The notes under the pieces: model-generated
Databases searched by the model: none
Told to the model about the DNA's origin: nothing
What the model saw: only the letters and a program-made list of their open reading frames with translations
Assembly: GCA_963776345.1 (NCBI GenBank)
Contig: CAVZMH010000018.1
Coordinates: forward strand, 32,001-96,000
DNA: 64,000 nucleotides
DNA from: an uncultured delta proteobacterium
GTDB lineage: Bacteria > Myxococcota > Myxococcia > Myxococcales > Myxococcaceae
Reading direction: 5' to 3'
Translations under genes and position numbers: made by a program
In this document: piece by piece, positions 45,742-64,000 of the stretch
How positions within the stretch are numbered: position 1 is the stretch's first letter
Layout: every line of letters begins with the position of its first letter

Positions 45742-45836
45742 GCGGCCGCCTTCCGGCGACGACACCGAAACGTTTCCCAGGGCCGCCCGCCTTCCCTGAA
45801 GTGTCACAGAACGGTCGCAGGGGTCGTCCGCACGGC

Positions 45837-45852
45837 TGGTACATCGGCCGCG
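45837..45852 (+). promoter_or_regulatory. Putative sigma-54 promoter of the porin gene
   Basis: TGGTACATCGGCCGCG (GG-N10-GC); GAAACGTTTCC upstream at 45767. Confidence 0.45.
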
Positions 45853-45901
45853 CCTCGGACACGCACACCCCGAAGGCCTCCCAGAGGAGGGGTCACTCAC
45901 A

Positions 45902-47355
45902 ATGTCTCGATCCAGGCCTTGGCTCGTCGGCGCGCTCCTGTTCGCCGGCGCCGCTCTCGCCCAGTCGTCACCCGCTCCCGCGACCGCGGGGACCGACGCG
46001 CAGCCCGCCGCTGGCGTGACGTCACCGCGGCTCCAGCCGGATCGCGCCTCGGCACCCGAAGCTCGCCAAGCCCCCGCCGCCGACGCAGGAGTTCATGAAG
46101 ACGAAGTGGGGCACCGAGTTCTACGGGTTCGTGGAACTCGATTCCATCTACGACAGCACGCAGAGCTTCAGCGACCTGCAGGGCAACGGGAACATCGTCC
46201 GGCCTGGCTCGTACGGCTACGTCCACCACCGGGTGCAGTTCACGCCCCGCAACTCGCGACTCGGCTTCCGGCTCAGCGCACCCGAGTAGAACGGGATCCG
46301 CGCCTCCGCCCTGGCGGAGATGGACTTCTTCGGCAACCAGCCGCCGGGTCCCCGTCGAACGCCAGCACCGCGGTCGGTGAGGGCGCGTTCTTCCAGAACC
46401 CCACCTTCCGGATCCGCCACTTCATGTTCAAGGCCGAGACGGACTACGTGGATCTCATGATGGGGCAGTACTGGAACCTCTTCGGCTGGCAGTCGTACTT
46501 CCACCCGAACTCGGTCAACCTGCAGGGCCTTCCGGGGCAGGTGTACTCCCGCAGCCCGCAGATCCGCCTGTCCCACACCTTCAAGTCCGACGCCGTTGAA
46601 CTTGGAGGTCGCCGTCGCTGCGCCGCGTCCGCCGCAGCGCGATGCGGGCCTCCCCGACGGTCAGGCCGGCCTCCGCTTCTTCCTGAACGACTGGAAGGGC
46701 TTCCACACCGCCGGCGGCACCGGCACGGCGCTCGACTCGGCAGCATCGGAGTGTCCGGCATCCTCCGGAAGTTCGAGCTTCCGGTCTACTCGGCCAGAGC
46801 GGGCGCGGCGACACGTCGACCTACGGCTGGGGCGTCTCCATCGACGGGCTCATCCCGATCATCCCGGCCAGCAAGACCGACCACGGGAACGCGCTCACCC
46901 TGACCGGCTCCTACGTGCGCGGCGCGGGCATCGCGGACATGTACACCGGCCTGACCGGCGGCGTGGCCGGCGTCGGCAACGCACCGGTCGGACGGCGGAC
47001 CTACACGTACACCGGCATCGACTCCGGCCTGGTCGGCCTTCGACAAGCAACGGCAACCTGGAGGCCATCAAGTGGACCACCTTCATCGTCGGCGCGCAGT
47101 ACTACCTGCCCACCAGCGACAACCTCTGGGTCAACGTCGTCTACTCCCGGAGCGTCTCGTACAACGAGCCAGCTCTACGGCGCGGCGACATCGGTGTGCT
47201 ACAACCAGTCGCAGTACGTCGAGGGCGACATCTTCTACGACCTGACCAAGGCCGTGCGCCTCGGCCTCGGGTACATGTACACGCGCCAGGAGTACGTGGA
47301 CGGCGCAGTCGCCGAGAACCACCGCGTGCAGCTCTCGGGCTGGTTCATCTTCTAG
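45902..47355 (+). CDS. DcaP-like outer-membrane porin broken by about 7 frameshifts and an in-frame TAG (46287-46289)
   Basis: Signal peptide; FYGFVELD..YD, NSRLGF, EMDFFG, FRIRH, GQYW and PQIR across frames; terminal WFIF. Confidence 0.75.
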
Positions 47356-47374
47356 TCAGTCGACCGTTCGCTCG

Positions 47375-47404
47375 GGCCCCGTCCGGCATCCGCCGGGCGG
47401 GGTT
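47375..47404 (+). terminator. Hairpin terminator
   Basis: GGCCCCGTCCGGC-ATCC-GCCGGGCGGGGTT just after the stop codon. Confidence 0.55.
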
Positions 47405-47455
47405 CCGCGTCTCCCCGGGAACGTCTGGAGAACGCAGCGCGTCACGCCGGCCTGC

Positions 47456-47558
47456 GTTACCGAACGTAACGGGGCGTTACGCATTCACACGCGTCCCACG
47501 TGGTGGCGAGTGCAAACCCCTCGATTTCAGAGGCTTTTCCGATGGAACGTACCTTGCC
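47456..47558 (+). promoter_or_regulatory. GTTAC-N5-GTAAC enhancer plus sigma-54 promoter
   Basis: GTTACCGAACGTAAC at 47456 with an extra GTTAC at 47476; TGGAACGTACCTTGCC at 47543-47558. Confidence 0.7.
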
Positions 47559-47638
47559 TACAGCGGGGTCGGAAAATGCCCATCTATGTCCGCTCGCCGG
47601 CGGGGGCGGGCGGCGCAGTCACACGGGAGAGGGGACGC

Positions 47639-48926
47639 ATGAAGCTCAAGAGATGGTCGTGGTGTCTCGGAGTCCTATGCGCGCTGGTGGCCGTGCGCGC
47701 TGAGGCGGCGAAGTTCTCATTCAGCGACAAGGGCTTCATCGACGTCGGCACGCTGATTCAGGGGCAGTACCGGATCGAGCAGGACGCGGCGCCGTCCGGC
47801 AAGGATCCATCGAACGACTTCCTGCTCCGTCGTGGCCGCATCATCATCTCGGGCCAGTACGACGAGCACATCGGGTTCTTCTTCGACACCGACGTGAGCT
47901 ACGGCCCGATCTCGACCGCCGTCGGAAGCAACTCGACGGCTGCGTCGACCGCGGCGGGCTGGAACATGAACATCTACGTGCTCGACGCGGTGGCCATCTA
48001 CAAGGTCAGCCGGTCGCTGATCATCGACGCCGGCCTCACGCTGCTCCCCTACAGCCACAACTCGCTGACCAACCCGGCAACCCTGGCCGGCATCAACGGG
48101 ACGTTCACCCCCTACTGGGCGCCCGGCAACCAGCGTGGCATTCCGGGACGCGGGCCTCGTCATCCGCGGCCTGATCCTCGATGATCGCCTCTACTACCGC
48201 CTGGGCGTCTTCAACGGCGTGCAGGGGGTGAAGAACACGGCCGCGGTCGGGGCGCCTTCGAACGGGAACAACCCCGGCGACGCGCCGAACTTCGCCGGCA
48301 TGCTCCGCTTCAACTTCGCCGGGAAGGAGGAGGGCTACGGGTTCTGCCAGATGTGCTTCGCCGCGAGCCCGATCATCAGCCTCGGCGTTTCCGCCGACGT
48401 CCAGCCCAACAGCTTCCGGGCCGTCGCTCCGACGGGTGCCACCACCGCCGCCACCCAGCTGGGGAGCCAGGCCTGGGCCAACTACAACGTCGATTTCTTC
48501 ATGGACGTCCCCTTCGGGAACGACATGGAGCTCTCGCTCGACGTGGTGGGCCAGCTGGTGAAGGCCGGTGACGGCGCTCCGCAGAGCGGCAAGAGCGTCA
48601 ACGGCATCGTCAGCTTCCGCTTCGGGCCGATCGCGCCCTCCTTCCAGATGGAGTGGTTCGACTCGGATTCCAACTACGTCGGCTTCACCACGCGTGGGCA
48701 CGACGCACCACCGGGTACACGGCGGGCGAACGTCACCACCTACCGCGGCGGCCTGACCTGGTACCTCTCCAAGCACAACTACAAGATTTCGGCGGAGATC
48801 GCCTTCCAGGACAAGGAGAACGCCGGCGCGTGGCCACGCACCCTGGGCCCCCCGGCGACCGTCACCATCGGCACCGTGCCGACCAACCACTGGGTCGGCA
48901 CGCTGCAGTTCCAGTCGTACTTCTAG
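47639..48926 (+). CDS. OprO/OprP-like outer-membrane porin; frameshift at ~48135
   Basis: Signal peptide; DFLLRRGRI, LDA, RDAG and YRLGVFNG motifs; terminal QSYF. Confidence 0.8.
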
Positions 48927-48949
48927 ACGCTGCGGCGTAAGAGCACTCG

Positions 48950-48984
48950 AGGGCCGGATTCCCGCGCAGGGGTCCGGCCCTTCG
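48950..48984 (+). terminator. Hairpin terminator
   Basis: AGGGCCGGATTCCC-GCGCA-GGGGTCCGGCCCT. Confidence 0.55.
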
Positions 48985-49574
48985 TGCGTCCGCGGGCCAA
49001 GCGCAGGTCGACTGGCGACCCGGTTCCAGCGCGTGCGGGCCAGCCTGGCGGGCCTGCGCGGCACGGGGCTGGGGTTCGGGGTCGGGCGAAACACACTGCT
49101 CGAGCAGGGCCTACGAGCAGCACTGCGCGAGGAGGAGCTTTCAGCGCGCCGAGCTCGGCGTGAGCCCGAACGAGCCGAGCTCGCGCCGATGCTCGCACCC
49201 ATCACGCCCACCTCCCTGGGCGGCGCCTGGAGCTGAACGCGACCAGGAACCGCTCCATCAGCGTGCTCGAGAGGGAGGGGTGCTCGAGGAGGGCTCGGGC
49301 TGAGGCTCGGGCGGGGTGCACGAGAGGTTGCTCGGCACGAGTGCTCGGGAAGAGTCCTCGGAAGGAAGCCGGCCGGGCCTCGGGACGCCTCGCCCGGCGT
49401 GGAGCGGTCCCCGTGCCACCCGCCTGGATCGACCGGTGCCGTCCATCGCGGCTCGAGCCCCCAGCTCGCGCGCCGCCGGGCCTGCTCCGCTCGCGTCCCT
49501 CGGGACCCCGCCGCCCCTGAATCGCCTTCGCCCCCCCCGCATTGACCGCGGCGGCGAGCCCGTTCGCACCACGA

Positions 49575-49624
49575 CAAACGAACCGGCCGGCACCGCGCTC
49601 CGGGGGGAAGCGCGGGCCGGCCGG
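49575..49624 (-). terminator. Terminator of the MFS gene
   Basis: CCGGCCGGC..CGCGCT stem followed by TTCGTTTG on the minus strand. Confidence 0.55.
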
Positions 49625-49659
49625 CGATCGGGGAAGCACCCCGGGACGGCAGCTGACCG

Positions 49660-51295
49660 CTAGATGACGCCGATCTTGTGGTCCTTGGTCTCGCGAACGG
49701 CGATCGACCCGACGACGAAGGTCATCGCCGCCACGATGATCGGATACCAAAGGCCGTAGTAGATGTCCCCGGTGGTCGCCACCAGCGCTGCGGCTGTCAG
49801 CGGGAGCATGCCCCCGAACCATCCGTTGCCGATGTGGTAGGGCAGCGACATCGATGTGTACCGGATCCGGGTGGGGAACAGTTCCACCAGGAACGCGGCG
49901 ATGGGCCCGTACACCATGGTGACGTAGATCACCATGATCACCAGGATCAGCAGGACCATCGGCCAGTTCAGCCCCGCCGGATCGAACTTGGCCGGATAGC
50001 CGTGCGTGGCCAGAGCGGCAGCGACCTTGCCCTCGTAGGCCTTGATGGCGGCCGCATCCATTCCGCTGGTGGCCGGGATCTCGGTGTCGTTGATCCGGAG
50101 CAGCGGGGCCGCGCCGGGCGCGGCTTCGATGTTGGTGTAGCTCACGCTTCGCGAGGTCAGGACGTTCCGCACCCGGTCGCAGTCGCTGTACCGGGTGGTG
50201 GGCAGGGCGAAGATGTGGACCTGGCAGTCGGTGGCGGTGAGCGTGATCTTGTTGCTGGCGTTGAACCGCTCCAGCGCCGGGTTGGCGTAGTGGGTCAGTC
50301 CCTTGAAGAGCGGGAAGTAGGTGACCACCCCGAGGAGGCAGCCCACCATCATGATCCACTTCCGGCCGATCCGGTCGGAGAGCCGGCCGAAGACGATGAA
50401 GAACGGTGTGCCGATCACCAGGGAGGCGGCGATCAAGCAGATACACCGTCTCGAACGGGACCTTGAGCGTCGTCTGGAGGAAGAACAGTGCGTAGAACTG
50501 GCCCGTGTACCAGACCACGCCTTGCCCGGCGGTGGCGCCGATGAGGGCGAGGATGACGATCTTCAAGTTCGCCCACTGGCCGAAGCTCTCCGACAGCGGC
50601 GCCTTGCTCCCCTTGCCCTCCGCCTTCATCCGGCGAAACATCGGTGACTCGTTCAGCTTGAGCCGGATGTAGATCGAGATGACCAGCAGGATGATCGAGA
50701 GGATGAAGGGAATCCGCCAGCCCCATCTCTGGAAGTCCGCGGGGGCCATCACGTATCGGCAGATCCAGATGACCACCAGCGCCAGGAACAGACCCACCGT
50801 GGCGGTGGTCTGGATCCAAGCGGTGTGTCCGCCGCGCTTCTCCTCCGGGGCGTGCTCGGCGACGTAGGTGGCCGCGCCTCCGTACTCACCGCCCAGGGCC
50901 AGGCCCTGCGCCAGTCGGAGCAGGAGGAGCAGCGCTGGCGCCGCCATGCCGATGGCAGAGTAGGTGGGGAGGAAGCCCACCAGGGCCGTGGAGAGACCCA
51001 TCACCGTGATGGTCACCAGGAAGGTGTATTTCCGGCCGACCAGGTCACCGATGCGTCCGAAGAAGAGCGCGCCGAACGGACGCACCAGGAAGCCCGCCGC
51101 GTAGTTCACGAACGCGTTGAGGAGCGCGGTGGTCTGGTTGCCCGGGGGAAAGAACACGACGGCGAAGAACGGGGCCAGCACTGCGTAGATGTAGAAGTCG
51201 TACCACTCGAAGACGGTACCCAGGGACGACGCGAAGATGACGCGACGCTCTTCGCTCTTGTCGACCATGGGCAGGGACGATGCGGCGACGGCCAT
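49660..51295 (-). CDS. MHS-family (metabolite:H+) MFS transporter; frameshift at ~50437
   Basis: GTVFEWYDF, RPFGA..GRIGD..GRK, GGEYGGA, WGWRIPF and ELFPTRIRY motifs. Confidence 0.92.
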
Positions 51296-51339
51296 CGGCT
51301 GCCTCCTTCAGGAAAGACGGGTGGGCATCTTCCGTAGAC

Positions 51340-51446
51340 CGCAACATTCAAGCCAAGTTGCACACATCAACTCTGTCACCCGGTTCGAAGTTGACGCGTC
51401 GCACTAGCCGCGCAGAACGGTAACAGTCGACGTTACCTTCGGTAAC
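51340..51446 (-). promoter_or_regulatory. Sigma-54 promoter plus GTTAC-N5-GTAAC enhancer
   Basis: TGGCTTGAATGTTGCG on the minus strand at 51340-51355; GTTACCTTCGGTAAC at 51432 with an extra half-site at 51420. Confidence 0.7.
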
Positions 51447-51632
51447 GCCCTCCACCATCTCATGGCATCACGCGCGCCCCATCGAGCCCTCGATGGGGAA
51501 GACGTTGCTCGGCGTCACCGCACCGAACGGGGCGAGGCCGGTCATCGAGAGGCTCCCGTCGCCGAGCTCCAAGCTGCACGCCGCGTAACCGTCGGCAGAG
51601 AGTCACCATCCAGTGGCCCGGTCCGCCCTGAT

Positions 51633-51660
51633 CGGTAACAGGTCCGTTACCTTCGGTAAC
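51633..51660. repeat. Second copy of the CGGTAAC-N6/7-GTTACCTTCGGTAAC element
   Basis: Near-identical to 51418-51446. Confidence 0.7.
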
Positions 51661-51738
51661 ACCTCGGCGCGCAGTCCTACTGCAATCCGATTGCACGAAA
51701 ATAGGGCCAGTGGACCTCCCGAGCCTGGTGCTCGATGG

Positions 51739-53067
51739 TCAGCCCAAGAAGGCCCGGCTCACCGCGTAGTAGAGGGGCAGGAGCGTGACCGCGCTGTAGC
51801 CCAGGTAGCGGAAGAACCCCGGCATCCGGACGCCGGCGTGCTCGGCGATGGCCTTCACCATGAAGTTGGGCCCGTTGCCGATGTACGTGTTCGCGCCCAT
51901 CAGCACCGCGCCCAGGGAGATGGCGGTGAGGAGCTCCGCACCGCGTTCGCTCGCCACGAGCTGACCCAGGTTGGTGGCATCGGTGCCCATCTGGCCGCTG
52001 GCCGCCGAGGCGAACACCAGATAGGTGGGCGCGTTGTCCAGGAAGGAGGAGAGCGCGCCGGTGGCCCAGAAGTACTGCCACGGTTGGTGGAGCGCGAGCT
52101 CACCCCCTCGGGCATTGAGGATGGCCAGCGGAGGAATCATGGTGGCGAAGATCCCGGCGAAGAGGATCGCCACCTCCACGATGGGATGCCAGCTGAAGGA
52201 GTTCTCGGTGCGGAGCGCTCGCGGGGTGGTCAGCCAGCAGAGAGCGGTCACCAGCAACATCGCCCCGGTCTGCACCAGGACCGGAAGCCGCAGGGTGCCC
52301 GACACCAGCAGCACCGCCAGGAGTCCCCCGAGGTAGGCCAGGCTTCCCCAGCCGGCGATGTGGATCGGGATCTGGTGGGCCACGGCGATCTCGTCGAGGT
52401 CCCCCGGCCGCTCCAGATCTTCCCGGCGGAAGACCGTGGAGTCGACGATGTAGAAGACGACCAGCAGGGCGCCATTGACCAGGAGCCACGGCTTCCACAG
52501 CCCGAGGGTCCAGGTGAAGGGGACACCGCGAAGGTAGCCCAGGAACAGTGGCGGATCCCCCAGCGGTGTCAGAAGACCCCCGGCGTTCGCCGCCATGAAG
52601 ATGAAGAAGACCACCACGTGGGACTTCCGCAGCCGGACGGAGTTTGCCCGGAGGAGTGGACGGATCAGCACCATCGACGCGCCGGTGGTCCCGATCAGCG
52701 AGGCCAGGACGGCGCCGCTGCCGAGGAGGACCGCGTTCAGCCCGGGCGTCCCGGCCAGTGTGCCGCGAACGACCACCCCGCCGGCGATGACGAAGAGCGC
52801 CCCGAGGAGGACGATGAAGGCCAGGTACTCGCTCGCCGTGTGCAGCAGGGCTCCGGTGTCGAGCAGTGCCGTCCAGATCGCCACCGGTGCCCCGAGCGCC
52901 ACGCTCAGGAAGGCCTTGTTGCGGTTCCGCTCCCAGGTCCGGCCGGCGACCAGCGGCAGCACGGCGATGGCCAGAAGCATCAGGGCAAAGGGGATGATGC
53001 TCCAGGCGGGGAAGCGGTGACCGAGCTCTGAGGTCGAGGCGACCGCAACGACGACCGGACGGTGCAT
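51739..53067 (-). CDS. IT-superfamily ion/carboxylate transporter (putative Na+/H+ antiporter or citrate transporter family)
   Basis: IGTTGASM, ANAGGLLTPLGDPPLFLG, LSSFLDNAPTY and TYIGNGPNFMVK motifs. Confidence 0.85.
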   Translation of the reverse strand: MHRPVVVAVASTSELGHRFPAWSIIPFALMLLAIAVLPLVAGRTWERNRNKAFLSVALGAPVAIWTALLDTGALLHTASEYLAFIVLLGALFVIAGGVVVRGTLAGTPGLNAVLLGSGAVLASLIGTTGASMVLIRPLLRANSVRLRKSHVVVFFIFMAANAGGLLTPLGDPPLFLGYLRGVPFTWTLGLWKPWLLVNGALLVVFYIVDSTVFRREDLERPGDLDEIAVAHQIPIHIAGWGSLAYLGGLLAVLLVSGTLRLPVLVQTGAMLLVTALCWLTTPRALRTENSFSWHPIVEVAILFAGIFATMIPPLAILNARGGELALHQPWQYFWATGALSSFLDNAPTYLVFASAASGQMGTDATNLGQLVASERGAELLTAISLGAVLMGANTYIGNGPNFMVKAIAEHAGVRMPGFFRYLGYSAVTLLPLYYAVSRAFLG

Positions 53068-53168
53068 CCGGCGGACGTTAGTCGGGGCATGGCCGGTGTT
53101 GCATCGGGATGGCGCGACGGGCTGGAACCTGGGAACCTCTCCCGGCCCCAGACCTGGCGCTCTCAACG

Positions 53169-54632
53169 ATGCCGGACGCTCGCCTCGAGACCGGACTGCA
53201 CCGCCTGCGGGCCAGGGAGCTGGTGGCCCGGCCCCCATTCCTCACCGCGCCCACCGAGGCCGTCGCTGCCGTGGCCCGCGCGATGGCGGAGCGCCACATT
53301 GGCTCGGCGGTGGTCGCCACCGGCCGAACGCCGGTGGGCATCGTGACCGATCGTGACCTCCGCTCCAGGGTCGTCGCCGGCGGGTACCCCCCCTCGGGGC
53401 CGGTGTCGGGAATCATGTCCGCACCGCTGAAGACCGTCCGAGCCGAGGACTCGGCCTTCACCGCGCTCCGGGAAATGACCCGCTCCGCCATCCACCACCT
53501 GGGGGTGGTCGATGGCGAAGGTCAGCTGCTCGGCGTCATCTCCAGCAATGACTTCCTGGCCCTGGAGAGAGGGCATCCGGCCTCGCTGGTCAAGGAGCTG
53601 GACGCGGCGACCTCCCTGGACGGGGTCCGTGCCGCAGCAGGACGCCTCCCCACTCTGGTGCAGGGGCTCCTCCGCGCGGGTCTCCCGGCCATCGAGGTGA
53701 CGCAGCTGGTCGCCGAGGTCCACGACCGGACTCTGCGGCGGGTGGTGCAGCTTGCCGAGGAGGGCCTGGCCAGCGAGGGGCAGGGTCGGCCGCCGGGGCC
53801 GTTCGCCCTGGTGGTCGGAGGCAGCGAGGGTCGGCGCGAGCAGACCATGGTCACCGATCAGGACAACGGGCTGGTCCACGCCTCCGTCCCCGAGGAGGTC
53901 GCCGGGACGGCAGGGGACTACTTCCCGCGTCTGTCCGAGGCGATTGCCTCGCGGCTCGCCGCGCTGGGCGTTCCCTCCTGCCCGGGCGGGTTCATGGCGG
54001 TGAACCCCCGTTGGCGTCTCGACGTCGGGCGGTGGAAGGAGCGATTTCTCCAGTGGATGGAGCGGCCGGAGGGCCACGCCCTGGTCGAGGCGAGCGTGTA
54101 CTTCGACTGGCGGTTCGTCGCCGGCGACGAGGCGTTGGCAAGCGAAGTGTGGAACTGGGTGTGCACCGAGGCTCCCCGGCACGCGCCCCTCCACCAGGCT
54201 CTGGCGCGCGAGGCCCTGCGCCGGGATCCTCCGCTCGGGCTCTTCGGACGTTTTCGGGTGGCCCACCACGGCCCGCATCGGGGGCGCTTCGACGTCAAGG
54301 CGCTGGGGCTCTTCCCCCTGGTGCACGGGATGAGGACTTACGCGGTGCAGCTTGGCCTGAAGGAGACCGGGACCTCCGCCCGCATCGCCGGCGCGGTGGA
54401 GGCCGGGGCCCTGGGCGCGGGGGAGGGCCGCGACCTGAGTCATGCCCTGGAGACGGTGCTCCGGGCGCGCCTGGAGGCCGAGCTGGGCGGAGCGGTAGGG
54501 CAGCCTCCCTCGACCCAGCTCGACCCCGCCCGTCTCGACGCCATCGATCGGGCCGCCCTCCGCCAGGCATTCCGGACCATTCGCCTGTTCCAGCGGGGAC
54601 TGGCCGAGCGGTTCCGCACCCAGCTCTCCTGA
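53169..54632 (+). CDS. CBS-pair plus DUF294/DUF294_C nucleotidyltransferase, copy 1
   Basis: CBS motifs GIVTDRDLR and IHHL; NTase GSEGRREQ..TDQDNG; CPGGFMA.NP.W, FD.R and FDVK..GLFP. Confidence 0.88.
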   Translation: MPDARLETGLHRLRARELVARPPFLTAPTEAVAAVARAMAERHIGSAVVATGRTPVGIVTDRDLRSRVVAGGYPPSGPVSGIMSAPLKTVRAEDSAFTALREMTRSAIHHLGVVDGEGQLLGVISSNDFLALERGHPASLVKELDAATSLDGVRAAAGRLPTLVQGLLRAGLPAIEVTQLVAEVHDRTLRRVVQLAEEGLASEGQGRPPGPFALVVGGSEGRREQTMVTDQDNGLVHASVPEEVAGTAGDYFPRLSEAIASRLAALGVPSCPGGFMAVNPRWRLDVGRWKERFLQWMERPEGHALVEASVYFDWRFVAGDEALASEVWNWVCTEAPRHAPLHQALAREALRRDPPLGLFGRFRVAHHGPHRGRFDVKALGLFPLVHGMRTYAVQLGLKETGTSARIAGAVEAGALGAGEGRDLSHALETVLRARLEAELGGAVGQPPSTQLDPARLDAIDRAALRQAFRTIRLFQRGLAERFRTQLS

Positions 54633-54633
54633 T

Positions 54634-56094
54634 ATGCCCGAAGCTCGCCTCCAGACCTGGCTGCACCGCCTCAGGGCTCGGGAGCTGCTGAGTCGCCCCC
54701 TGGTGACCGCAGCTCCGACCGAGGCCGTGGCGGCCGTGGCCAGGGCGATGACCGAGCGACACACCGGCGCGGCGGTGGTCGCTAACAAAGGAACCCCCAT
54801 CGGGATCGTCACCGACCGGGACCTTCGCTCCAAGGTCGTCGCCGGCGGGTATCCACCCTCGGGGCCGGTTTCGGGGATCATGTCCGCCCCGGTGAAGACG
54901 GTGCGCGGCGAGGACTGGGCCTTCACCGCCCTCCGGGAGATGACCCGCACGGCCCTCCACCACCTGGCGGTGGTTGACGGGGACGGTCAGCTGATCGGCG
55001 TGCTCTCCACCGACGACTTCGTTCCGCTCGAAGCGGGGCATCCGGCCTCGCTCACCCAGGCGGTGGACGCCGCGGCCTCCCTGGACGGGATTCGCGCCGC
55101 CGAGTCGCGGCTCCCTCCGCTGGTTCGGGGCCTGGTCCGCGCCGGCCTCCCGGCGATCGAGGTGACCGAACTCGTTGCCGAGGTCCACGGCAGGACCCTG
55201 CGCCGGGTGACGCAGCTTGCCGAGCAAGCGCTCGCTGCCGAGGGGCACGGACGACCGCCGGTGCCGTATGCCCTGGTGGTGGGAGGCAGCGAAGGCCGCC
55301 GCGAGCAGACCATGGTCACCGACCAGGACAACGGGCTGGTGTACGCCCTCGGCGCAGACGACGGCGGGGCCAGGGAGTACTTCACTCGACTGGCCGAGGG
55401 CATCGCCCAGAGACTCGCGGCACTGGGCGTTCCCCACTGTCCCGGGAATTTCATGGCGACCAACCCCCGGTGGCGCCTCGACGTCGGGCGGTGGAAGGAG
55501 CGATTTCTCGAGTGGATGGAACGGCCGGAGGACCATGCCCTGGTCGAGGCGAGCGTGTTCTTCGACTGGCGGTTCGTCGCCGGTGACGAGGCGGTGGCAA
55601 GCGAGGTGTGGACCTGGGCGTGCACGGAGGTTCCCCGGTACGCGCCCTTCCACCAGGGTCTGGCGCGCGAAGCCCTGCGGCGGGATCCGCCTCTGGGGCT
55701 CTTCGGCCGTTTTCGGGTGGCGCACCGTGGCCCCCATCGGAGGTGCTTCGACGTCAAGGCGCTGGGGCTCTTTCCTCTGGTGCACGGGATGCGGGCCTAC
55801 GCGGTGCAGCTGGGCCTGAAGCACACCGGGACCTCCGCCCGCGTCGCCGGCGCGGTGGAGGCCGGGGCCCTGCGCGCAGAGGAGGGGCGTGACCTGACTC
55901 ACGCCCTGGAGACGGTGCTCCGGACGCGTCTCAATGCCGAGCTGGGCGCGGTCATGGAAGGCCGGTCTCCCTCCAGCCAGGTCGACCCTTCCCGCCTCGA
56001 CGCCATCGAGCGCGCCGCCCTCTACCAAGCATTCCGGACCATTCGCTTGTTCCAGCGAGGACTGGCCGACCGGTTCCGCACCCAGCTCTCCTGA
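54634..56094 (+). CDS. CBS-pair plus DUF294/DUF294_C nucleotidyltransferase, copy 2
   Basis: Collinear paralog of copy 1 with the same motifs. Confidence 0.88.
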   Translation: MPEARLQTWLHRLRARELLSRPLVTAAPTEAVAAVARAMTERHTGAAVVANKGTPIGIVTDRDLRSKVVAGGYPPSGPVSGIMSAPVKTVRGEDWAFTALREMTRTALHHLAVVDGDGQLIGVLSTDDFVPLEAGHPASLTQAVDAAASLDGIRAAESRLPPLVRGLVRAGLPAIEVTELVAEVHGRTLRRVTQLAEQALAAEGHGRPPVPYALVVGGSEGRREQTMVTDQDNGLVYALGADDGGAREYFTRLAEGIAQRLAALGVPHCPGNFMATNPRWRLDVGRWKERFLEWMERPEDHALVEASVFFDWRFVAGDEAVASEVWTWACTEVPRYAPFHQGLAREALRRDPPLGLFGRFRVAHRGPHRRCFDVKALGLFPLVHGMRAYAVQLGLKHTGTSARVAGAVEAGALRAEEGRDLTHALETVLRTRLNAELGAVMEGRSPSSQVDPSRLDAIERAALYQAFRTIRLFQRGLADRFRTQLS

Positions 56095-56169
56095 GCTGCC
56101 GTCGCTCGAGAGAAACGGGATTGGCCGCGAGGGCCAACGAGGACCGATCAACCAGGCCGGTTTCCGCTG

Positions 56170-58373
56170 TCAGTACTTCAGGCGCGCGGCCCAGGTCCGC
56201 TGCGATGCCTCCCTGGCCTCGCGGAGCGTCTCGATGCCCCGCGCCCTCAGCAGGGGGACCATCCTGAGGAAGATCTCGCCGGTCATGATCGCGTCGCCGA
56301 GCGCGGTGTGCCGCCCGAGCACGGGAACGCCGAACCGTTCGGCGATGCCCTCGAGCCCGGTGGGGGGGAGGTCCGGCTGGATCAGCTCGGCGAGGAGCAG
56401 GGTGTCGAGCACCGGGTGCGTGAAGCGGACCCCCGCCACGGCTTCCTTGAGCTGGAGGAAGCGCAGGTCGAAGGCGCCGTTGTGCGCGACGAGCACGGTG
56501 CCCTCGCAGAAGCGATGGAACCGGGGGAGGACCTCCTCGATCGGCGGCTTGCCCCGGAGGAGCGCAGGATCGATGCCGGTGATCCGGACCGTCTCCGGCG
56601 ACACGGTCCTCCTGGGGTCCACGAACTGCTCGAAGGCCTCCTGGTGGAGCAGCCGCCCGTTCACGATGCGCACCGCGCCGATGGAGATGATCTCGTCGCC
56701 GCCGGAGGGGGAGAGCCCGGTGGTCTCGGTGTCGAAGGCGGTGTACTCGAGCGCCGTGAGCTTCCGCTCGTCCAGCTCCCGGGTCTGCCCCGCCTGGTGG
56801 AACAGGTCGAAATCGTAGAACTCGGGCCGGCCGCCCGTGAGGGGGAGGCGAGCGTCGCCTGCTCCGCCTCCGCCACCGGGAGGACCAGCCGGATGAATCC
56901 GGGCGCGGAGGGACGGTCCCCCTGGGACCAGACGGCTCCGTCGTGGCGCTCGACCACCGCCCTCAGCGTTGGCGGCATGGGCTCCCCGTCGACGTCGGGG
57001 GGTTCGTCCTCCCAGCGAGCGATGACCTCGGTCGGCACGTCGGCGCCGGACCAGGTGACGTCGAGATGCGCCCGCCGGCCGGCCCGCCGGAGCGCAAGCC
57101 GCAGCTCCCGGACGCCCCGGCGCTGGAGCCGGCTCCCGATCGAGGCGACGGCCCGCACCAGGGAGTAGCTCTCCACCTTGAGCCAGAGCCCGGGATCGAT
57201 CTCGTCGAGGGTCGTGGACAGGCCGAGGGTGCCCTCGATGCGCGAGCGCGCCGCCGAGAGGAGGTCGGCTCCCTGCATGTTCTCGAGGAGCCACTCGGCC
57301 CGCAGCGAGGTGAGCTCGGGTGCGGCGCGATCGAGGGTGGCCGAGAGGGCCGACGCCTCGTCGTGGATGACCCCGACGAACGCGGCCCGCCGCTCGACCT
57401 CCAGGCCCGGGTGGGCGAGGAGCGTCTCCACCGCCGCCCGGATGTTGGCGAGCGCACGCCGGCTCGCGTCGGTGAGCGCCTGAAGGGCGGCCTCGGTGCG
57501 GCTCCCCGCCTGGAGCGGCCGGGTGACGTCGTCGATGCGGAGCACGAACCCACTGATGACGCTCGTCCCGGCGCCGCGCGGGGCGGTGTCTTCCCCCTCC
57601 TGCGTCGCGCGCCCGCCGCGCAGGACGGGCGAGACGTGGACGCGCAGGAACCGACCGCCGCCGGCGGTGACGAAGCTCGCCACGGGATGTTGCGTCCCCT
57701 TCTCCAGGCGCGCCTGGATCGTCTCCAGGGCGTGGGCGACCTGGGCCCGCTCGAGGATCACGAACACCGACCGCGCCAGCCCCACCAGGCCGGCCCCGCC
57801 GTCCGGCGGCGTCCCGTCGGTACAGTCGGTCGTCCTCCCGTGGAGCTCCCGCGCCTTCAGGTTGTAGAGGAGGATACGCCCCTCGAGGTTGCAGACGAGC
57901 ACCGCCTGCGACGACTCGGCGATGATCGCGGCGAGCCGATCGCGCTCCTCCCCCAGCCGCTGCTGCGCCTCCGCCACCCTCGCCTCGAGCTCGCCGCGGA
58001 GCGTCTCGTGCTCGGCGGCGAGCGCGTTGATCGCGTCCGCCAGCTCCCGGAGCTCCGCTCCGCCGAGCGGCTCGAGCCGGTGGGAGGCGTTCCCGTGGGT
58101 GACGAGGCGGGTTCCCTGCGCGAGCGCGAGGGGGGCGGCCACGTGCTGCTGGACGAGCACCCAGACCAGGAGCCCGTGGCCGGCGAGCAGGCCGACCCCG
58201 AGACCGACGAGCAGCGGGGCCCGCTCCGTCACGCCGGCGGCAAGGGCGGAGCGCTCGTCGGGCCCGAGCGCGGCCCACACCCCCGCGCAGACCAGGGCGG
58301 CGGCGACGAACGCGAGGGCCTGGGAACCCACGAGGACGAGCGCGAACCTGGCCTTGGCGAGCCTCGCCATCAC
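56170..58373 (-). CDS. Membrane TM-HAMP-PAS-degenerate kinase-DEDDh (DnaQ-like) exonuclease; frameshift at ~56850
   Basis: Two TM segments; HAMP ([10 protein letters not shown]); PAS ([14 protein letters not shown]); [25 protein letters not shown] and HTALGDA. Confidence 0.85.
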
Positions 58374-58741
58374 CCGTCGCCGAGCAACGCCTTCACCGTG
58401 GCCACCAGCTCCTTCGTGGCGAACGGCTTCGTGACGTAAGAATCGGCGCCGAGAGCGAGCCCCTTCTCGGCGTCGATGTCACGCCCCTTCGCGGTCAGCA
58501 TCACCACCTTGATCCCCGCCAGGCCGGGCGTCTCGCGCACGGCCTGGCAGATCTCGTAGCCGTTTCGCTTCGGCATCATCACGTCGAGCAGGACCAGGTC
58601 GGGACGGAAGTCGCGGAGGATCTGGAGGGCCGTCTCCCCGTCGGCCGCGGTCCGCACCTCGTACCCCTCGAACTCCATGAGGAACTGGAGTGACATGACG
58701 ATGTTCGGCTCGTCGTCGGCGATCAGGACTCTCTTCTTCAT
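58370..58741 (-). CDS. Single-domain response regulator
   Basis: LIADDE, LDVMMP, TA and KPF motifs; 123 aa with no output domain. Confidence 0.9.
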
Positions 58742-58752
58742 GCTGGCTCCGT

Positions 58753-61575
58753 TCAGCTGGCACCGGCCCCCGTCCCGGACGCGCCGAGCGCAGCGGCGCG
58801 ATCGTCCCGCACGTCGCCACCGCCCACCTCCGCCGGACGGCGGAGCGGGATGACGAACGAGAACGTGGCTCCCCTCCCGGGCTCGCTCTCCACCCACAGG
58901 CGCCCCCCGAAGTGGTGGATGATCTCGCGGCTGATCGGGAGCCCCAGGCCGGTTCCCCTGGGCTTGGTGGTGAGGGTGTCGCCGCCCTGGCGGAACTTCT
59001 CGAAGATGAGCTCCTGGTCCTTCGCCGCGATTCCCATCCCGTTGTCGCGCACGTCGACGCGGACCCCCCCCGGCTCCGCGCGCAGCGAGATGGAAACCCG
59101 GCCGCCCGGGTCGGCGCAGAACTTGGCCGCGTTGGAGAGGAGGTTGATCACCACCTGCACGAGGCGGTCCCGATCGGCGAGGATCCGTGGGACCTCCGCC
59201 GGCACGTCGACCTCCAGCGTCGCCGCCTTCTCGGCGAAGAGCTGGCTCGTCGCCGCCACGGCGTGCTCGACCACCTCGCGCGGGCTCACCTCCCCGATCC
59301 GCCAATCGACCCGGCCGGCCTCGATCTTCGAGAGGTCGAGGACCTGGTTGATCAGGCGGGTGAGCCGCTCCGCCTCCTGGATGACGACGGACAGGTACTT
59401 GGTGCGGGTGGCGGCATCGAGCTCGGGATGGTCGTGGAGAATCTCGGAGGCCGAGCGGATGGAGGTGAGCGGGGTGCGGAGCTCGTGCGAGACGTGGGAG
59501 ACGAAGTCGTCCTTCATCCTGTCCAGCTCCTTCAGCTGCTCGTTCGCGCTCCTGAGCTCCGCGTACGCGCTGGTGAGCTCCCGCGACGTCTTCTCCAGCT
59601 CCCGGCTGTACTTCATGATCTGCGAGGCCTCGTCGAGGATGGACATCACCTCGTCCATGGTGAGCGGGGCCTCCTTCACGACCGACGCCACCATCGCGTG
59701 GGCCGACGCTCCGCCGATGGCGCCGGCCAGCTTCGTCTCGGCGAACTGGATGAGATTCGCGTCGGCGTCGACCTCCCACGCCGACCGCACGCGACGATCG
59801 CGCGCGTAGCTCTCCAGCACCTCGTCGGCCTTGTCCGCCCCGAGGAAGCGCGAGAGGAGCGCGCGCAGCTCCTGGACCGACACGCCGCCCCGCCAGAAGA
59901 GCGACCCGGTGCCGGCGGCGGAGTGCTTGAACACGTCCACGAACAGCGTCGCCTGGCTGTGCTCGACCGCGCTCTGGGTGGTCGACAGCGAGAACGCGAC
60001 GTAGGCGCCCACGTTGGCCAGCATGGACCAGATCATCCCATGGGTGATCTGGTCGAGGCCGGTGAGCCCGAAGAGCTGCAGGGGCCTCAGGGCCTCGATC
60101 CCGAACGGCCCCGCCTCGACGATGGACATGGGCACCCAGCCTGACCTCGCGAACGCCGGGACGAGGAGGGTGTAGAGCCAGACCAGGAATCCGGCGGAGA
60201 GGCCGGCGAGGGCGCCGGCGCGCGTACCGCCCTTCCAGAAGAGCCCACCCAGGCAGGCGGGCGCGAACTGCGCCACCGCGGCGAAGGAGATGAGGCCGAT
60301 CGACACCAGCGCGTAGGCCTCCCCCGCGATCCGGAAGTAGAGGTAGCCGAGGAGCAGCATCACCAGGATCGCCCCGCGCCGGATGCCCAGCAGGAGTCCG
60401 GTGAGATTCTTCCGCTCGTTCAGCCGCAGCGCGCGCCAGCGGAGCAGGAGAGGCATGGCGAGGTCGTTGCAGACCATGGTGGAGAGCGCGATCGTCTCGA
60501 CGATCACCATTCCGGTCGCCGCGGAGAGCCCTCCGATGAAGACCAGCAGCCCGAGCCCGTTCTGGCCCCTGGAGAGCGGCAGGGTGAGCACGTACGTGTC
60601 CGGATCGACCGGGGTGCCGGCGAAGTGGACCATCCCGCCGAAGGCGATCGCCGGCACGAAGAGGTTGATGACCAGCATGTAGAGCGGGAACAGCCAGATC
60701 GCGGTCTTCACGTGGTCGACGTCGACGTTCTCGACCACCGCGACCTGGAACTGCCGGGGCAGGAACATGATCGCCAGCATGGCGAAGAAGGTCGCGGAGT
60801 AGAGCGAGGCCAGGACGCCAGTTTGCCCATCGCCCGTTCCCCCGATGACGAAGAGGGCCTGGACCCCGGGCAGCTCCCGGGCGCGGGTGAAGACGTCCCG
60901 GAACCCGTCGAACATTCCCCAGGTCACGAACCCGCCCACCGCCAGGAAGGCGACGAGCTTCACCAGCGACTCGAAGGCGATCGCCGCGACCATCCCCTCG
61001 TGCCGCTCCGAGGCGTCGAGGTGGCGGGTCCCGAACATGATGGTGAAGGTGGCGAGGATGAGCGCCGCGTACAGCGCGGTGTCGCCGAGGAACGGCCCGC
61101 CGTGGCCCGCGCCGACGGCCTCCACGTCGTGCGAGTGGACGATGGTGAAGGCGGTGGAGATCGCCTTCAGCTGCAGCGAGATGTAGGGGAGGATCCCGAT
61201 CACCGCGATGACGGTGACGAGCCCCGCGACGAGGCCGCTCTTGCCGTACCGGGAGGCGATGAAGTCTGCCAGCGACGTGATCCGGTGGACCTTGCTGATG
61301 AGGATGATCTTCCGCAGCAGGATCCACCACAGGAGGCACATGATCGTCGGGCCGATGTAGATGGGCAGGAACCCGATGCCGGTGGAGACGGCGCGCCCGA
61401 CCGAGCCGTAGAAAGTCCACGCGGTCGCGTAGACCGCGAGCGACAGTGAGTAGATGTACGGGTTCGCGATGAGACTCCGCCCGCGGTCGGCGCGCCGGTC
61501 GGCGTAGTAGGCGATCGCGAAGAGGAGCCCCAGGTAGGCGCAGGCGACAGAGATGACGACCCAGTCCCGGAGCAC
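58753..61575 (-). CDS. SLC5 (Na+/solute symporter)-STAC-histidine kinase (CrbS/CbrA/PrlS-like)
   Basis: About 13 TM segments with YSLSLAVYATAWTFYGSVG and LPRQF; STAC-like LAGAIGGASA; HELRTPL, NAAKF and GTGLGL. Confidence 0.92.
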   Translation of the reverse strand: MLRDWVVISVACAYLGLLFAIAYYADRRADRGRSLIANPYIYSLSLAVYATAWTFYGSVGRAVSTGIGFLPIYIGPTIMCLLWWILLRKIILISKVHRITSLADFIASRYGKSGLVAGLVTVIAVIGILPYISLQLKAISTAFTIVHSHDVEAVGAGHGGPFLGDTALYAALILATFTIMFGTRHLDASERHEGMVAAIAFESLVKLVAFLAVGGFVTWGMFDGFRDVFTRARELPGVQALFVIGGTGDGQTGVLASLYSATFFAMLAIMFLPRQFQVAVVENVDVDHVKTAIWLFPLYMLVINLFVPAIAFGGMVHFAGTPVDPDTYVLTLPLSRGQNGLGLLVFIGGLSAATGMVIVETIALSTMVCNDLAMPLLLRWRALRLNERKNLTGLLLGIRRGAILVMLLLGYLYFRIAGEAYALVSIGLISFAAVAQFAPACLGGLFWKGGTRAGALAGLSAGFLVWLYTLLVPAFARSGWVPMSIVEAGPFGIEALRPLQLFGLTGLDQITHGMIWSMLANVGAYVAFSLSTTQSAVEHSQATLFVDVFKHSAAGTGSLFWRGGVSVQELRALLSRFLGADKADEVLESYARDRRVRSAWEVDADANLIQFAETKLAGAIGGASAHAMVASVVKEAPLTMDEVMSILDEASQIMKYSRELEKTSRELTSAYAELRSANEQLKELDRMKDDFVSHVSHELRTPLTSIRSASEILHDHPELDAATRTKYLSVVIQEAERLTRLINQVLDLSKIEAGRVDWRIGEVSPREVVEHAVAATSQLFAEKAATLEVDVPAEVPRILADRDRLVQVVINLLSNAAKFCADPGGRVSISLRAEPGGVRVDVRDNGMGIAAKDQELIFEKFRQGGDTLTTKPRGTGLGLPISREIIHHFGGRLWVESEPGRGATFSFVIPLRRPAEVGGGDVRDDRAAALGASGTGAGAS

Positions 61576-61584
61576 GTGTGCGCC

Positions 61585-61842
61585 TCAGCGTGGCGGCGGC
61601 GGCCGTCGCGCCCCTCCTTGCCCGCCGCGGAGGTTTCCGTCGTCGGATCCGCTCACCTGGAGGACCAGGGCGGCTCCCAAGATCACCACCGCCCAGGCGA
61701 CGAAGAGGTACAGGTAGAGCTTCGGCATCCCCAGCACCAGCGTGGGGGCGTTGAACATCTGGAGGAGCGGGTAGTTGAAGAGGAGCAGACCGAACAAGGC
61801 CAGGGCGACAAGTCGTTCGTTCCTGACATTGGTTCGCTTCAA
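61585..61842 (-). CDS. Small two-TM membrane protein upstream of the SLC5 kinase
   Basis: LLLFNYPLL..GMPKLYLYLFVAW; GGGAG RBS and TTG start. Confidence 0.7.
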   Translation of the reverse strand: MKRTNVRNERLVALALFGLLLFNYPLLQMFNAPTLVLGMPKLYLYLFVAWAVVILGAALVLQVSGSDDGNLRGGQGGARRPPPPR

Positions 61843-62023
61843 CTGGCCGCTCCCGCCATCGCGTGGCGCATCGTAATCCCCTCCCGCGTCCTCGCGTCCA
61901 CCCGGGTCCATGGCCCGACGCGGCGGGTGCAGGCGCATCTCCTCGGAGTGCACCTCTTCGGACCCTTGCTCCAGGTGCCGGATCGGCTCCAGCGCGCGGC
62001 GCGGTGACGGCCAGCGCCTCCGC

Positions 62024-62311
62024 TCAGCGCGGAGCCTGCGCCCCAAACTTGAGGTCGAGCACCACCGTCACCACCCACACCGCCACCGCCAGGGCAAACG
62101 CCACCCACCGCACTTTCCGCTCCGACGCGCCGGAGCCGGCAAGCGCTCGGGCGGGCCGGAGAAGCGGCGAGGCGACCAGGGCGAAGAACCCCAGCACCTT
62201 GCTCTCCGGATTCTTGGCCAGTCCCGTCGCCGCGATGTAGAGGCCCACGTAGCAGACGGCGATGAACGCAACCGTGCGGAGAATCAGCAGCACGCCGGGC
62301 AGCACTTCCAT
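62024..62311 (-). CDS. Small membrane protein
   Basis: GGAGG RBS; two to three hydrophobic segments; FF..VASP motif. Confidence 0.6.
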   Translation of the reverse strand: MEVLPGVLLILRTVAFIAVCYVGLYIAATGLAKNPESKVLGFFALVASPLLRPARALAGSGASERKVRWVAFALAVAVWVVTVVLDLKFGAQAPR

Positions 62312-62406
62312 CGCCAGGGAACCTCCGGAAAGCGGAGGGGCCCAGGAGGTCTCGCTCGAGCTTCGAGCGAGACGCCCCGGGCCCCGTCAGGCAGCAGTGG
62401 CCTCCG

Positions 62407-64000
62407 CTAGTGGGCGAATTCCGCCGAGGAGACGGTCGCCTTCGGATAGCGGACGCTGCTCACCAGTTCCTGGACCCGCTCCGGGGGAGGCGCGGTGAGG
62501 AGAGAGACCACCCAGATGGTGACGAAGCCGAGCGGGATCCCGAAGACCCCCGAGGCCACGGTGGCCGTGCCCCACCAGGTCATCCCGTAGAAGCGCGAGC
62601 CGACCATGTAGATGAGCGTGGTTGCCAGGCCGATGCCACATGCCGGCCACGGCCCCTGGGCGATTCGCCCGCTTCCACCAGATGCCCATCACCAGCGCCG
62701 GGAAGAAGCTCGCCGCGGCGAGACTGAAGGCCCAGGCCACCAGCTCGACGATGATCGCCAGCCGGAAGGTGGCGACGCTCGCCGCGATCAGCGCGGTGGC
62801 GATGAGGAGGATCTTGGTGATGGTGAGCCGGCGGATCAGCGGCGCCTTCGGGTCGATGATCTTGTAGTAGAGGTCGTGGGAGATGGCGTTGGCGATGGTC
62901 AGGAGCAGCCCGTCGGCGGTCGAGAGCGCCGCGGCGAGGCCGCCGGCCATCACCAGCCCGGTGATCACGAAGGGCAGGCCGGCTATCTCCGGCATCGCCA
63001 GCACCACGAAATCGGAGCTTTTGATCACGAAGTCAGCGAGCTGCACCACCCCGTCCCCGAGCTTGTCCACCACGTCGAAGAGGCCGGCGGGTTTCCACAG
63101 CGTCACCCACCGCGGCAGGTCGGCGATCTGCGTTCCGACCAGCCGGGTGTAGACCACGAACCGGGCGAAGGCGGCGTAGGCCGGGGCCGTGAAGTACAGG
63201 AGGAAGATGAAGAACAGGCCCCAGGCGACGGAGGTTCGCGCTTCCTTGACCGAGGGTGTCGTGTAGTAGCGGGTCAGGATGTGGGGCAATCCAGCCGTGC
63301 CCACCATCAGGCAGAAGGTGAGCGCGAGGAAGTTCCACATCCCCACGCCCTTGGGGACCGTCAGGTAGTTTCCGATGGTCGCGCCCGGGGCGGCGGGCGG
63401 CTTCGCCTGCACTACCGCCGTCTTCTGCTGGGCGGTCAGCTTCTCCCGCTCGGCGTCCGACAGCGCCGGGTGCTTTCAGCTTCGCCGTGGCCGCGTCGGC
63501 GTCCCGTTTCCACGCTGCTCGCGTGGCCGCCTCCTTCGGATCGTTGGTCACCTGGATTGCCGCGGCGTTGTTCCGCTGCAGCAGCTGGCCGTAGGTGAAC
63601 TGGGGGAAGGGGAAGGTGAAGAGCTGCCAGCTCAGCACCACCACCGGGACCAGGTAACTGATGATCAGGATGATGTACTGCGCCACCTGGGTCCAGGTGA
63701 CCGAGCGCATGCCTCCCAGCACCGAGCAGAAGAGCACGCCTACCAGTCCCACGAAGACCCCGATGTTGAAGTCCAGGCCCAGGAAGCGGCTGACGATCAG
63801 CCCCACCCCGGTCACCTGGGCGATGAGATAGGTGAAGGAGCAGAGAATGGCGGCGAGCACACCCACCAGCCGCGGCGCGATCCCGCCGTAGCGGCCCCCC
63901 AGGAAGTCAGGGATGGTGTAGGCCCCGAACTGCCTGAGGTAAGGACCGAGGAACACCGCCAGGAGCACGTACCCGCCGGTCCAGCCCATCACGTATGCCA
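62407..64000 (-). CDS. actP: ActP-like cation/solute (acetate) symporter, SSS family; 5'-partial; frameshifts at ~62640 and ~63410-63480
   Basis: MGWTGGY, YTIPDF, GGMRSVTWTQVAQY, GTAGLPHIL.RYYT, AAALSTADGLLL and WAFSLAA motifs. Confidence 0.85.

Follow-up and report, generated by a model that had tools for sequence, protein, structure and literature searches.

A myxococcal locus linking CBS-DUF294 nucleotidyltransferases to a membrane-tethered pseudokinase-DEDDh nuclease: a candidate system for reversible protein nucleotidylation

The DNA analysed here (the window, 64,000 nucleotides in full) is C18:32001-96000, part of one contig in a 5.1-Mb, 24-contig genome, 98% complete, from an uncultured member of the Myxococcaceae. 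At its right-hand end, two plus-strand CBS-CBS-DUF294-DUF294_C nucleotidyltransferase genes face a minus-strand run of a symporter, two small hydrophobic open reading frames (ORFs), a sensor kinase, a lone receiver and a membrane nuclease. A preliminary description made from the letters of the window had listed these parts, including the two CBS-DUF294 genes and the convergent run, and all of them are present; its interpretation, in which the transferases add a nucleotide to a protein or make a nucleotide signal and the nuclease removes it, is partly supported. Recurrence of the arrangement in three proteobacterial lineages and in Myxococcota, with differing gene orders, is far beyond chance, and the locus is a genuine, conserved system whose biochemistry is unsolved. 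Its features are:

53169..54632, plus strand: CBS-CBS-DUF294-DUF294_C nucleotidyltransferase, copy A (Pfam PF00571 twice, PF03445 at E 1.5e-41, PF10335)
54634..56094, plus strand: CBS-CBS-DUF294-DUF294_C nucleotidyltransferase, copy B (same Pfam domains, E 1e-42; D230, D232 and D311 intact)
56170..56845, minus strand: DEDDh 3'-5' exonuclease domain of the nuclease fusion (PF00929, E 3.5e-34)
56846..57530, minus strand: His-less pseudo-histidine-kinase core (DHp plus degenerate CA) of the nuclease fusion (hhalign against the cognate kinase core)
57531..58373, minus strand: N-terminal part of the nuclease fusion, two hydrophobic segments, HAMP and PAS (HAMP E 0.0015; weak PAS S-box; transmembrane segments predicted from sequence only)
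58370..58741, minus strand: single-domain response regulator, 123 amino acids (aa) (PF00072, E 1.8e-30; stop codon overlaps the nuclease start)
58753..61575, minus strand: SLC5-STAC sensor histidine kinase (HisKA and HATPase_c)
61585..61842, minus strand: small two-helix membrane protein, 85 aa, adjoining the kinase on its upstream side (resembles CbrX only in position and size)
62024..62311, minus strand: hydrophobic ORF, 95 aa (hit by a profile of sequences from related loci, E 2e-7; no Pfam match)
62407..64000, minus strand: VC_2705-family solute:sodium symporter (SSS), candidate target, start upstream of the window (both main pieces exceed the TIGR03648 cut-off)

Compared with intact relatives, three single-base indels interrupt this run. 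One base is missing from the nuclease fusion (56170-58373, minus strand) at ~56841-56846, which parts the pseudokinase from the DEDDh domain in the assembly, and the symporter carries one extra base near ~62638 and another near ~63472. The nuclease is unbroken in P0001, L002 and L123 and the symporter in L002 and L237, and the extra base at 63472 is missing from the contigs of three of four sequencing runs, these being of relatives rather than of the strain itself. True pseudogenisation is disfavoured, since the genes are unbroken in relatives that share 94-97% DNA identity and further genes in the window are interrupted too; assembly error is the likely cause. A frameshifted MFS transporter and split porin-like frames at 45900-51295 are likewise consistent with assembly indel errors. 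A promoter and terminator scan returned no promoters and two terminator-like sites where 3.1 were expected.

Both transferases match PF03445 and PF10335 above cut-off together with a CBS pair, and are thus of the COG2905 type (we take COG2905 to be the transferase family). The copies are 79% identical to each other, both are under purifying selection (dN/dS ~0.25 against orthologs), and copy A retains an intact GS-x-x-R-x-E motif and all three Asp residues. The duplication is common to the window, L002 and L123, and in a tree of 85 of the 164 DUF294 cores (midpoint root, deep branches weak) the two window copies form their own clade. At 486-487 aa, neither copy has a Pfam match to the cNMP domain of the Pseudomonas form, and this short, cNMP-less form is also present in other cassette loci. 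The GS..DxD motif of Pol-beta/GlnD-GlnE type, which had been noticed earlier, proved to be strongly conserved: among 164 DUF294 proteins, both window copies included, D230, D232 and D311 are present in 163/164, 164/164 and 164/164, the GS-x-x-R-x-E motif is nearly invariant, and the Thr/Asp positions of the CBS pair are kept in 155/164 and 156/164. The invariance of D311 suggests that it is the third carboxylate. The C-terminal domain, DUF294_C, has been classed together with GlnD/GlnE (PMC3710099), and weak PF03445 matches fall on GlnE/GlnD-like frames of ~900-1000 aa. The family is large, with 3,057 clusters at 50% identity and E values up to 1e-30 for the DUF294 core; the PDB holds no solved structure covering this core, and the ESM Atlas returned nothing usable beyond DUF294/CBS clusters. 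Some members depart from the pattern. The second DUF294 of a tandem pair (L138:7816-9309) has an altered catalytic motif and is possibly an inactive subunit. In Thauera/Azoarcus-type genomes (L082-L084, L086, L088), a long DUF294 gene is followed by a degenerate DEDD gene, whose first catalytic Asp has become Asn in L086; the gene ahead of the long DUF294 in L084 and L086 is presumably PhoH-like.

The nuclease had been described as a HAMP-PAS-DEDDh membrane protein, and these domains are indeed there; what had been overlooked is a degenerate histidine-kinase core between the PAS and DEDDh domains, at residues ~285-497. The profile of the HAMP-PAS region matches the VicK-like HAMP-PAS structure 4i5s (E 3e-13), and the closest named homolog of the nuclease is 93% identical and comes from a Myxococcaceae metagenome-assembled genome. 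Among the homologs listed for the N-terminal part, 108/120 are at least 690 aa long and run on into DEDDh, and the fusion is therefore real. The degenerate core aligns with that of the neighbouring kinase with 98% probability over 215 columns (hhalign); searched against its own genome, its profile matches only itself and this kinase (E 1.4e-10, full length), and its PDB matches include several kinase cores. Across 108 homologs, the phospho-His position is occupied by Glu (74), Asp (22), Gln (10) or another residue (2) and never by His, the N-box Asn is replaced by Arg in 103/108, and the G1 Asp by Trp in 108/108. DHp and CA homology without the catalytic residues places this core with pseudokinases of the DivL type and not with active kinases. 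DivL of Caulobacter crescentus is a kinase core that has been repurposed to sense the single-domain receiver DivK and lacks kinase and phosphatase activity (PMC4211667). The nuclease domain, by comparison with the dead kinase core it is joined to, is intact, with the whole D-E-D-H-D set present in 106/108 full-length homologs.

The receiver is 123 aa of receiver domain alone, as the preliminary description had held; D9, D10, D53 and K105 are invariant in 30/30 aligned sequences, and Pfam found no DNA-binding or other output domain. In the kinase, the H, N, G1 and G2 boxes are invariant in 16/16 sequences, and Pfam found neither a PAS nor a REC domain. The membrane part of the window protein had no Pfam match for SLC5-STAC, but the label given to it earlier held: a 21-sequence kinase family profile matches PDB 10ED, a CbrA SLC5-STAC construct, over positions 7-627 (E 7e-136). 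The 85-aa protein upstream of the kinase recurs in 61/69 assessable loci; homology to CbrX, which has been shown bound to CbrA (PMC13488458), was looked for and not detected, the protein having no Pfam or PDB match. What may connect the receiver to the nuclease is the pseudokinase, which would give this link a physical basis. The pseudo-DHp keeps cognate-like residues, and when its profile is scored against the 33 kinase cores in the genome, the cognate kinase comes top (43.7 vs 15.9 bits), as expected if both cores bind the same receiver, a pattern that common descent alone could also give. Taken with the linkage described below, we consider it quite likely that the receiver binds the pseudokinase.

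To examine linkage we used two sets of loci: a nuclease-centred set, the best 80 loci of 586 confirmed GTDB relatives, mostly from Burkholderiales and not independent, and a Pseudomonadota DUF294 set of 40 loci picked by hand from 110 matches in 251 genomes. In the former, the cassette of small protein, SLC5/STAC kinase, lone receiver and pseudokinase/DEDDh nuclease was complete in 60/69 assessable loci, and the receiver lay directly upstream of the nuclease in 68/74 loci whose flanks were long enough to judge (on the locus map, a receiver is visible in two of the six exceptions). DUF294 was found in 50 of these 80 loci (35/51 with wide flanks) and an SSS in 58/80. In the latter, 10/40 loci had the order DUF294-receiver-pseudokinase nuclease, nine of them directly behind DUF485-ActP and six continuing into the small protein and kinase; a receiver was present in 10/10 loci with a strong pseudokinase vs 0/27 others, although the ten are probably one clade. 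The co-occurrence of the two enzyme families, which had been put forward as a check, was borne out. DUF294 has a DEDDh gene no more than 3 kb away in 37/40 Pseudomonadota loci and 15/20 Myxococcota loci, and an SSS accompanies DUF294 in 26 of the 40. DUF294 is present in 78/251 Pseudomonadota genomes, namely in 48/70 that have a VC_2705 symporter vs 30/181 that do not (odds ratio 11, uncorrected for kinship). A strong DUF294 match was found in 37/201 Myxococcota genomes.

The two enzymes also occur as one protein. Single-chain DEDDh-CBS-CBS-DUF294-DUF294_C proteins are encoded at 4/40 Pseudomonadota loci (two confirmed by Pfam), and in 120/120 listed fusion homologs the four Pfam domains are all present and neither active site is disrupted; among the matches listed, the named fusion proteins are mostly from Hyphomicrobiales. 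In the DUF294 tree, the partners of the pseudokinase nuclease fall into several separate clades. The fusions are the strongest sign that both enzymes serve one process, as in bifunctional GlnD/GlnE, and it is probable that the transferase and nuclease oppose each other on one substrate. That this substrate is a protein we consider fairly likely, and that the transporter is a target somewhat likely.

Part of this idea is already in print for the Pseudomonas counterparts. Pflu5625 belongs to the CrbS/R regulon, and nucleotidylation-based regulation was predicted for it, with no mutant phenotype (PMC5715377); protein modification has been suggested for PP_0354 and RNA/DNA cleavage for PP_0353 in a study of CrbS/MxtR whose authors call the pair the most strongly regulated yet unexplained targets (bioRxiv 10.64898/2026.09.07.749794). 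In these bacteria the pair is transcriptionally controlled by CrbS/CrbR (MxtR/ErdR), indicating that it sits downstream of that route and does not replace it, as the preliminary description would have had it. An RNase T-domain gene has been reported as cofit with DUF4212 (bioRxiv 10.1101/072470), although that paper labels the gene COG2905, the family to which we assign the transferase. In P. putida, growth on pyruvate is impaired by deleting the nuclease gene pp_0353, yjcH or actP-I, and not by deleting the transferase gene pp_0354 (PMC9927547; bioRxiv 10.64898/2026.09.07.749794). Loss of the eraser that resembles loss of the transporter, together with silent loss of the writer, is what an inhibitory mark and its eraser would predict. 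Precedents for the chemistry exist: a DEDD-family oligoribonuclease hydrolyses the aryl-nucleoside monophosphate (NMP) ester pNP-TMP (PMC6390093), which we infer to be chemically like Tyr-O-NMP, and RNase Z is a deAMPylase (PMC12663964). The enzyme pair and protein nucleotidylation by DUF294 are thus in print, as are deletion phenotypes, contrary to the earlier statement that no mechanistic description was known. In the literature searched we met no account of the nuclease as an eraser, of the argument from fusions or of gating by a pseudokinase. Among the top matches listed, no paper described a DEDDh eraser or a fusion of pseudokinase and nuclease; subscription papers and bioRxiv supplements, which lay outside that search, may describe the cassette.

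From the domain content, the intact and dead active sites, the linkage and the fusions, all observed directly, we infer activities, a substrate, a target and a binding partner as follows. We propose, with a probability of about 0.45, that a protein is nucleotidylated reversibly as by GlnE/GlnD, the transporter being the likeliest target, and that the eraser is gated in the manner of DivL/DivK. The CBS-DUF294 enzyme would move NMP from a nucleoside triphosphate onto a hydroxyl-bearing residue of its protein target, most probably the DUF4212/SSS transporter and failing that another protein of carboxylate metabolism, and its CBS pair would read the adenylate charge. The mark would turn the transporter down, and the DEDDh enzyme would hydrolyse the phosphodiester and bring its activity back. 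This eraser would be membrane-tethered and gated by two-component input without transcriptional output: the SLC5-STAC kinase would phosphorylate the lone receiver, and the phosphorylated receiver would bind the nuclease at its dead DHp/CA core, as DivK~P binds DivL. A widespread two-component pathway whose sole output is a membrane-bound DEDDh de-nucleotidylase, opposing an energy-charge-gated writer that NMPylates a secondary transporter, is the fullest form of this proposal and in that form doubtful.

Several lines of evidence weigh against reversible nucleotidylation as set out here, the first of which concern the receiver. In four loci (L052, L055, L060, L077), the pseudokinase nuclease has no adjoining receiver. 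Conversely, Anaeromyxobacteraceae keep the small protein, kinase, receiver and DUF294 (L127, L129, L094, L095, L100, L107) with no pseudokinase nuclease in 5/5 genomes searched, suggesting that the receiver may have another partner; these genomes hold DUF294 in several copies, and some of the copies form tandem arrays of two or three. Such loci would suit a scheme in which kinase and receiver together act on the transferase or some other target, the pseudokinase is a relic or scaffold and the nuclease acts independently of phosphorylation, as would the ten loci in which DUF294 directly precedes the receiver and the persistence, beside Acs-DUF4212-SSS-DUF294 and without receiver or kinase, of membrane DEDDh proteins whose pseudokinase is lost or decayed (L179-L181, L185, L186, L188). 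We regard this scheme as improbable. The Anaeromyxobacteraceae DUF294 proteins nest within the betaproteobacterial cassette clade of the tree, which suggests later loss of the nuclease, and the receiver tracks the pseudokinase, whose cognate-like residues are retained.

A second group of contrary points concerns the nuclease. Its nearest solved relatives, by profile against the PDB, are PolC exonuclease and Pol III epsilon, and by sequence its DEDDh domain appears closest to DNA-proofreading exonucleases; databases name it Pol III epsilon, and the window's genome, 98% complete, has no second PF00929 match. All of this would be expected of an ordinary DnaQ-like proofreading or repair enzyme linked incidentally to its neighbours, an explanation that we find highly improbable given the wider pattern. 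No PF00929 match was found in 31/201 Myxococcota genomes, including the same-genus G130, which has neither DUF294 nor any DEDDh; the nuclease carries a membrane anchor; the tail beyond the last catalytic motif is only ~40 aa in its homologs; a clamp-type motif occurs in 3/108 of them; and against the Pol III epsilon model TIGR01406, the DEDDh domain piece scored alone reaches 102 bits vs a cut-off of 223. The fusion to the transferase and the carbon-source-specific phenotypes (PMC9927547; bioRxiv 10.64898/2026.09.07.749794) point the same way. Proofreading as the only role of the nuclease, which would have counted against the reading in the preliminary description, is unlikely.

DEDDh and Pol-beta folds often act on nucleic acids, and the nearest solved relatives of this DEDDh domain are nucleic-acid exonucleases. 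DUF294 might then tail an RNA or oligonucleotide that DEDDh trims, giving post-transcriptional control of transporter or metabolic genes; the fusions and the asymmetry between the deletions fit this equally well, and mRNA degradation (PMC9927547) and control of symporter expression (bioRxiv 10.1101/072470) have been speculated on in print. We nevertheless consider RNA an unlikely substrate: the transferase has a C-terminal domain classed with GlnD/GlnE and no RNA-binding domain match, RNase T matches the nuclease profile only weakly (E 0.023), Rfam has no match within 45000-64000, and membrane tethering is easier to explain by a membrane target. Enzymology offers no help to protein nucleotidylation, as the literature found reports no activity for DUF294 proteins or for the DEDDh enzymes paired with them, and the alignment that ties the DUF294 core to the C-terminal transferase region of one GlnE-like protein (label read from sequence) is only 53% probable by hhalign (E 1.3e-4, 211 columns).

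The remaining contrary points concern the target. In P. putida, growth on propionate is reduced by both the pp_0353 and pp_0354 deletions and not by the actP-I deletion (bioRxiv 10.64898/2026.09.07.749794), a phenotype that is not explained by a transporter-only target and points to another target or to a product needing both enzymes. Such a product could be a local second messenger, a dinucleotide or an NMP-metabolite adduct made by DUF294 and degraded by DEDDh, acting on the transporter or on CoA-ligase metabolism. A sensor-synthase opposed by a sensor-hydrolase, with fused forms, has the right logic, and DEDD enzymes cleave dinucleotide mimics (PMC6390093). There are also ~850-aa membrane proteins (L203:5403-7961, L204:4401-6965) that join a sensor-like N-terminus (Cache/PAS-like) to a DUF294 core, without CBS and with no DEDDh nearby. 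We hold a messenger to be decidedly unlikely, as the clusters that were examined across 80 loci show no recurrent gene for a dedicated receptor and the nearest characterised relatives modify proteins.

As for protein nucleotidylation with the transporter as target, the linkage is incomplete: many DUF294-DEDDh pairs have no transporter alongside, and among the 18 SSS-free DUF294 loci a BCCT transporter was found in only 3 (47/97 neighbouring ORFs scanned). There is no DUF294 nearby in 16/51 wide-flank loci of the nuclease-centred set, although 5/5 such genomes tested carry one elsewhere, and 22/70 genomes with a VC_2705 symporter lack DUF294 (a recheck gave weak matches only). Nor did a search for a target residue in the transporter succeed. 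In an alignment of 41 DUF294-adjacent, 16 other and 18 DUF294-free VC_2705 sequences, no Tyr, Ser, Thr, His or Lys separates the 41 DUF294-adjacent from the 18 DUF294-free genomes; the only differential columns are V and G, and at the C-terminal R-x-P motif each group includes sequences with Tyr, Ile, Val or Leu. A further negative, and a weak one, is that none of 8000 candidates of 852-2430 aa is a long DUF294-transporter fusion.

The symporter itself had been called ActP-like. It is a symporter and not ActP proper: it belongs to the TIGR03648/VC_2705 family, scores far below the cut-off of the ActP models (on frameshifted pieces), and has a TIGR03647/DUF4212 small subunit just upstream, outside the window, where ActP would have a DUF485 partner. 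The family of the 95-aa ORF recurs next to VC_2705 symporters in several loci. Acs, the other protein earlier suggested to be modified, was rejected as the main target, as it lies beside only 26/80 relatives (19/51 with wide flanks) and the adjacent Acs-like gene is without catalytic motifs. This gene, ahead of DUF4212/symporter at L001:2668-4290 (C18 ~96670-98290) and L237:9878-11398, has no P-loop, other catalytic motifs or C-terminal part; it is kept in a same-genus genome and is possibly a pseudo-enzyme, and the window's genome has two intact Acs genes elsewhere, on other contigs. Directly upstream of it (L001:4374-8700, C18 ~98370-102700; L237:5474-8862) are a second SLC5-STAC kinase and a sigma-54-type response regulator, CbrA/CbrB-like, and the locus therefore has two transporter-kinases. 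On the other flank, a CitMHS_2 gene for a putative citrate transporter (51739-53031, minus strand) diverges from transferase copy A across ~140 bp, and by DNA alignment it also adjoins the transferase in L002 and L123.

If reversible nucleotidylation is confirmed, it would be a third cascade of the GlnD/GlnE class with a new eraser fold; acetate, pyruvate and lactate uptake would come under covalent post-translational control; and the Pol III epsilon annotation of thousands of genes would conceal signalling erasers. The fusions and the existing deletion mutants make the idea of a writer and an eraser cheap to test.

Among known systems, the closest are the pair PP_0354/PP_0353 of P. putida KT2440 and the system of Pflu5625 in P. 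fluorescens, in which, as here, a CBS-DUF294 protein and an RNase T-family exonuclease are linked to ActP/YjcH and an SLC5-STAC kinase. The Pseudomonas pair differs in having a transferase with a cNMP domain and an exonuclease-domain protein, both transcriptional targets of MxtR/ErdR, whereas the myxococcal locus has short duplicated transferases, a nuclease mounted on transmembrane segments, HAMP, PAS and a pseudokinase, and a kinase with a lone receiver that has no DNA-binding domain. CbrA/CbrX, CrbS/CrbR (MxtR/ErdR) and RpuS/RpuR likewise have an SLC5-STAC kinase preceded by a small helical-hairpin membrane protein (PMC13488458, PMC5715377, PMC9100948); these systems end in transcription factors, while the kinase here has no PAS or REC and its receiver no output domain. 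With DivL/DivK, the locus shares a dead kinase core and a single-domain receiver, whose binding here is predicted. DivL signals to another kinase, and the output here would be the fused nuclease. RNase Z, the deAMPylase for SelO, offers the likeness of a nuclease acting as a protein-NMP eraser; the folds of writer and eraser both differ from those here, and RNase Z is apparently not linked genetically to its writer (PMC12663964). The likeness to GlnE, the glutamine synthetase adenylyltransferase, and GlnD, the PII uridylyltransferase/removing enzyme, lies in the Pol-beta transferase and its apparently related C-terminal helical domain and, for the candidate roles read from genes alone, in a sensor-gated writer and eraser that share one chain in the alphaproteobacterial fusions. 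The sensors here are CBS or cNMP domains, and we saw no link to nitrogen genes. The GlnD eraser is an HD domain. The eraser here would be DEDDh, a third solution alongside it and the second transferase domain that GlnE uses (PMC12663964).

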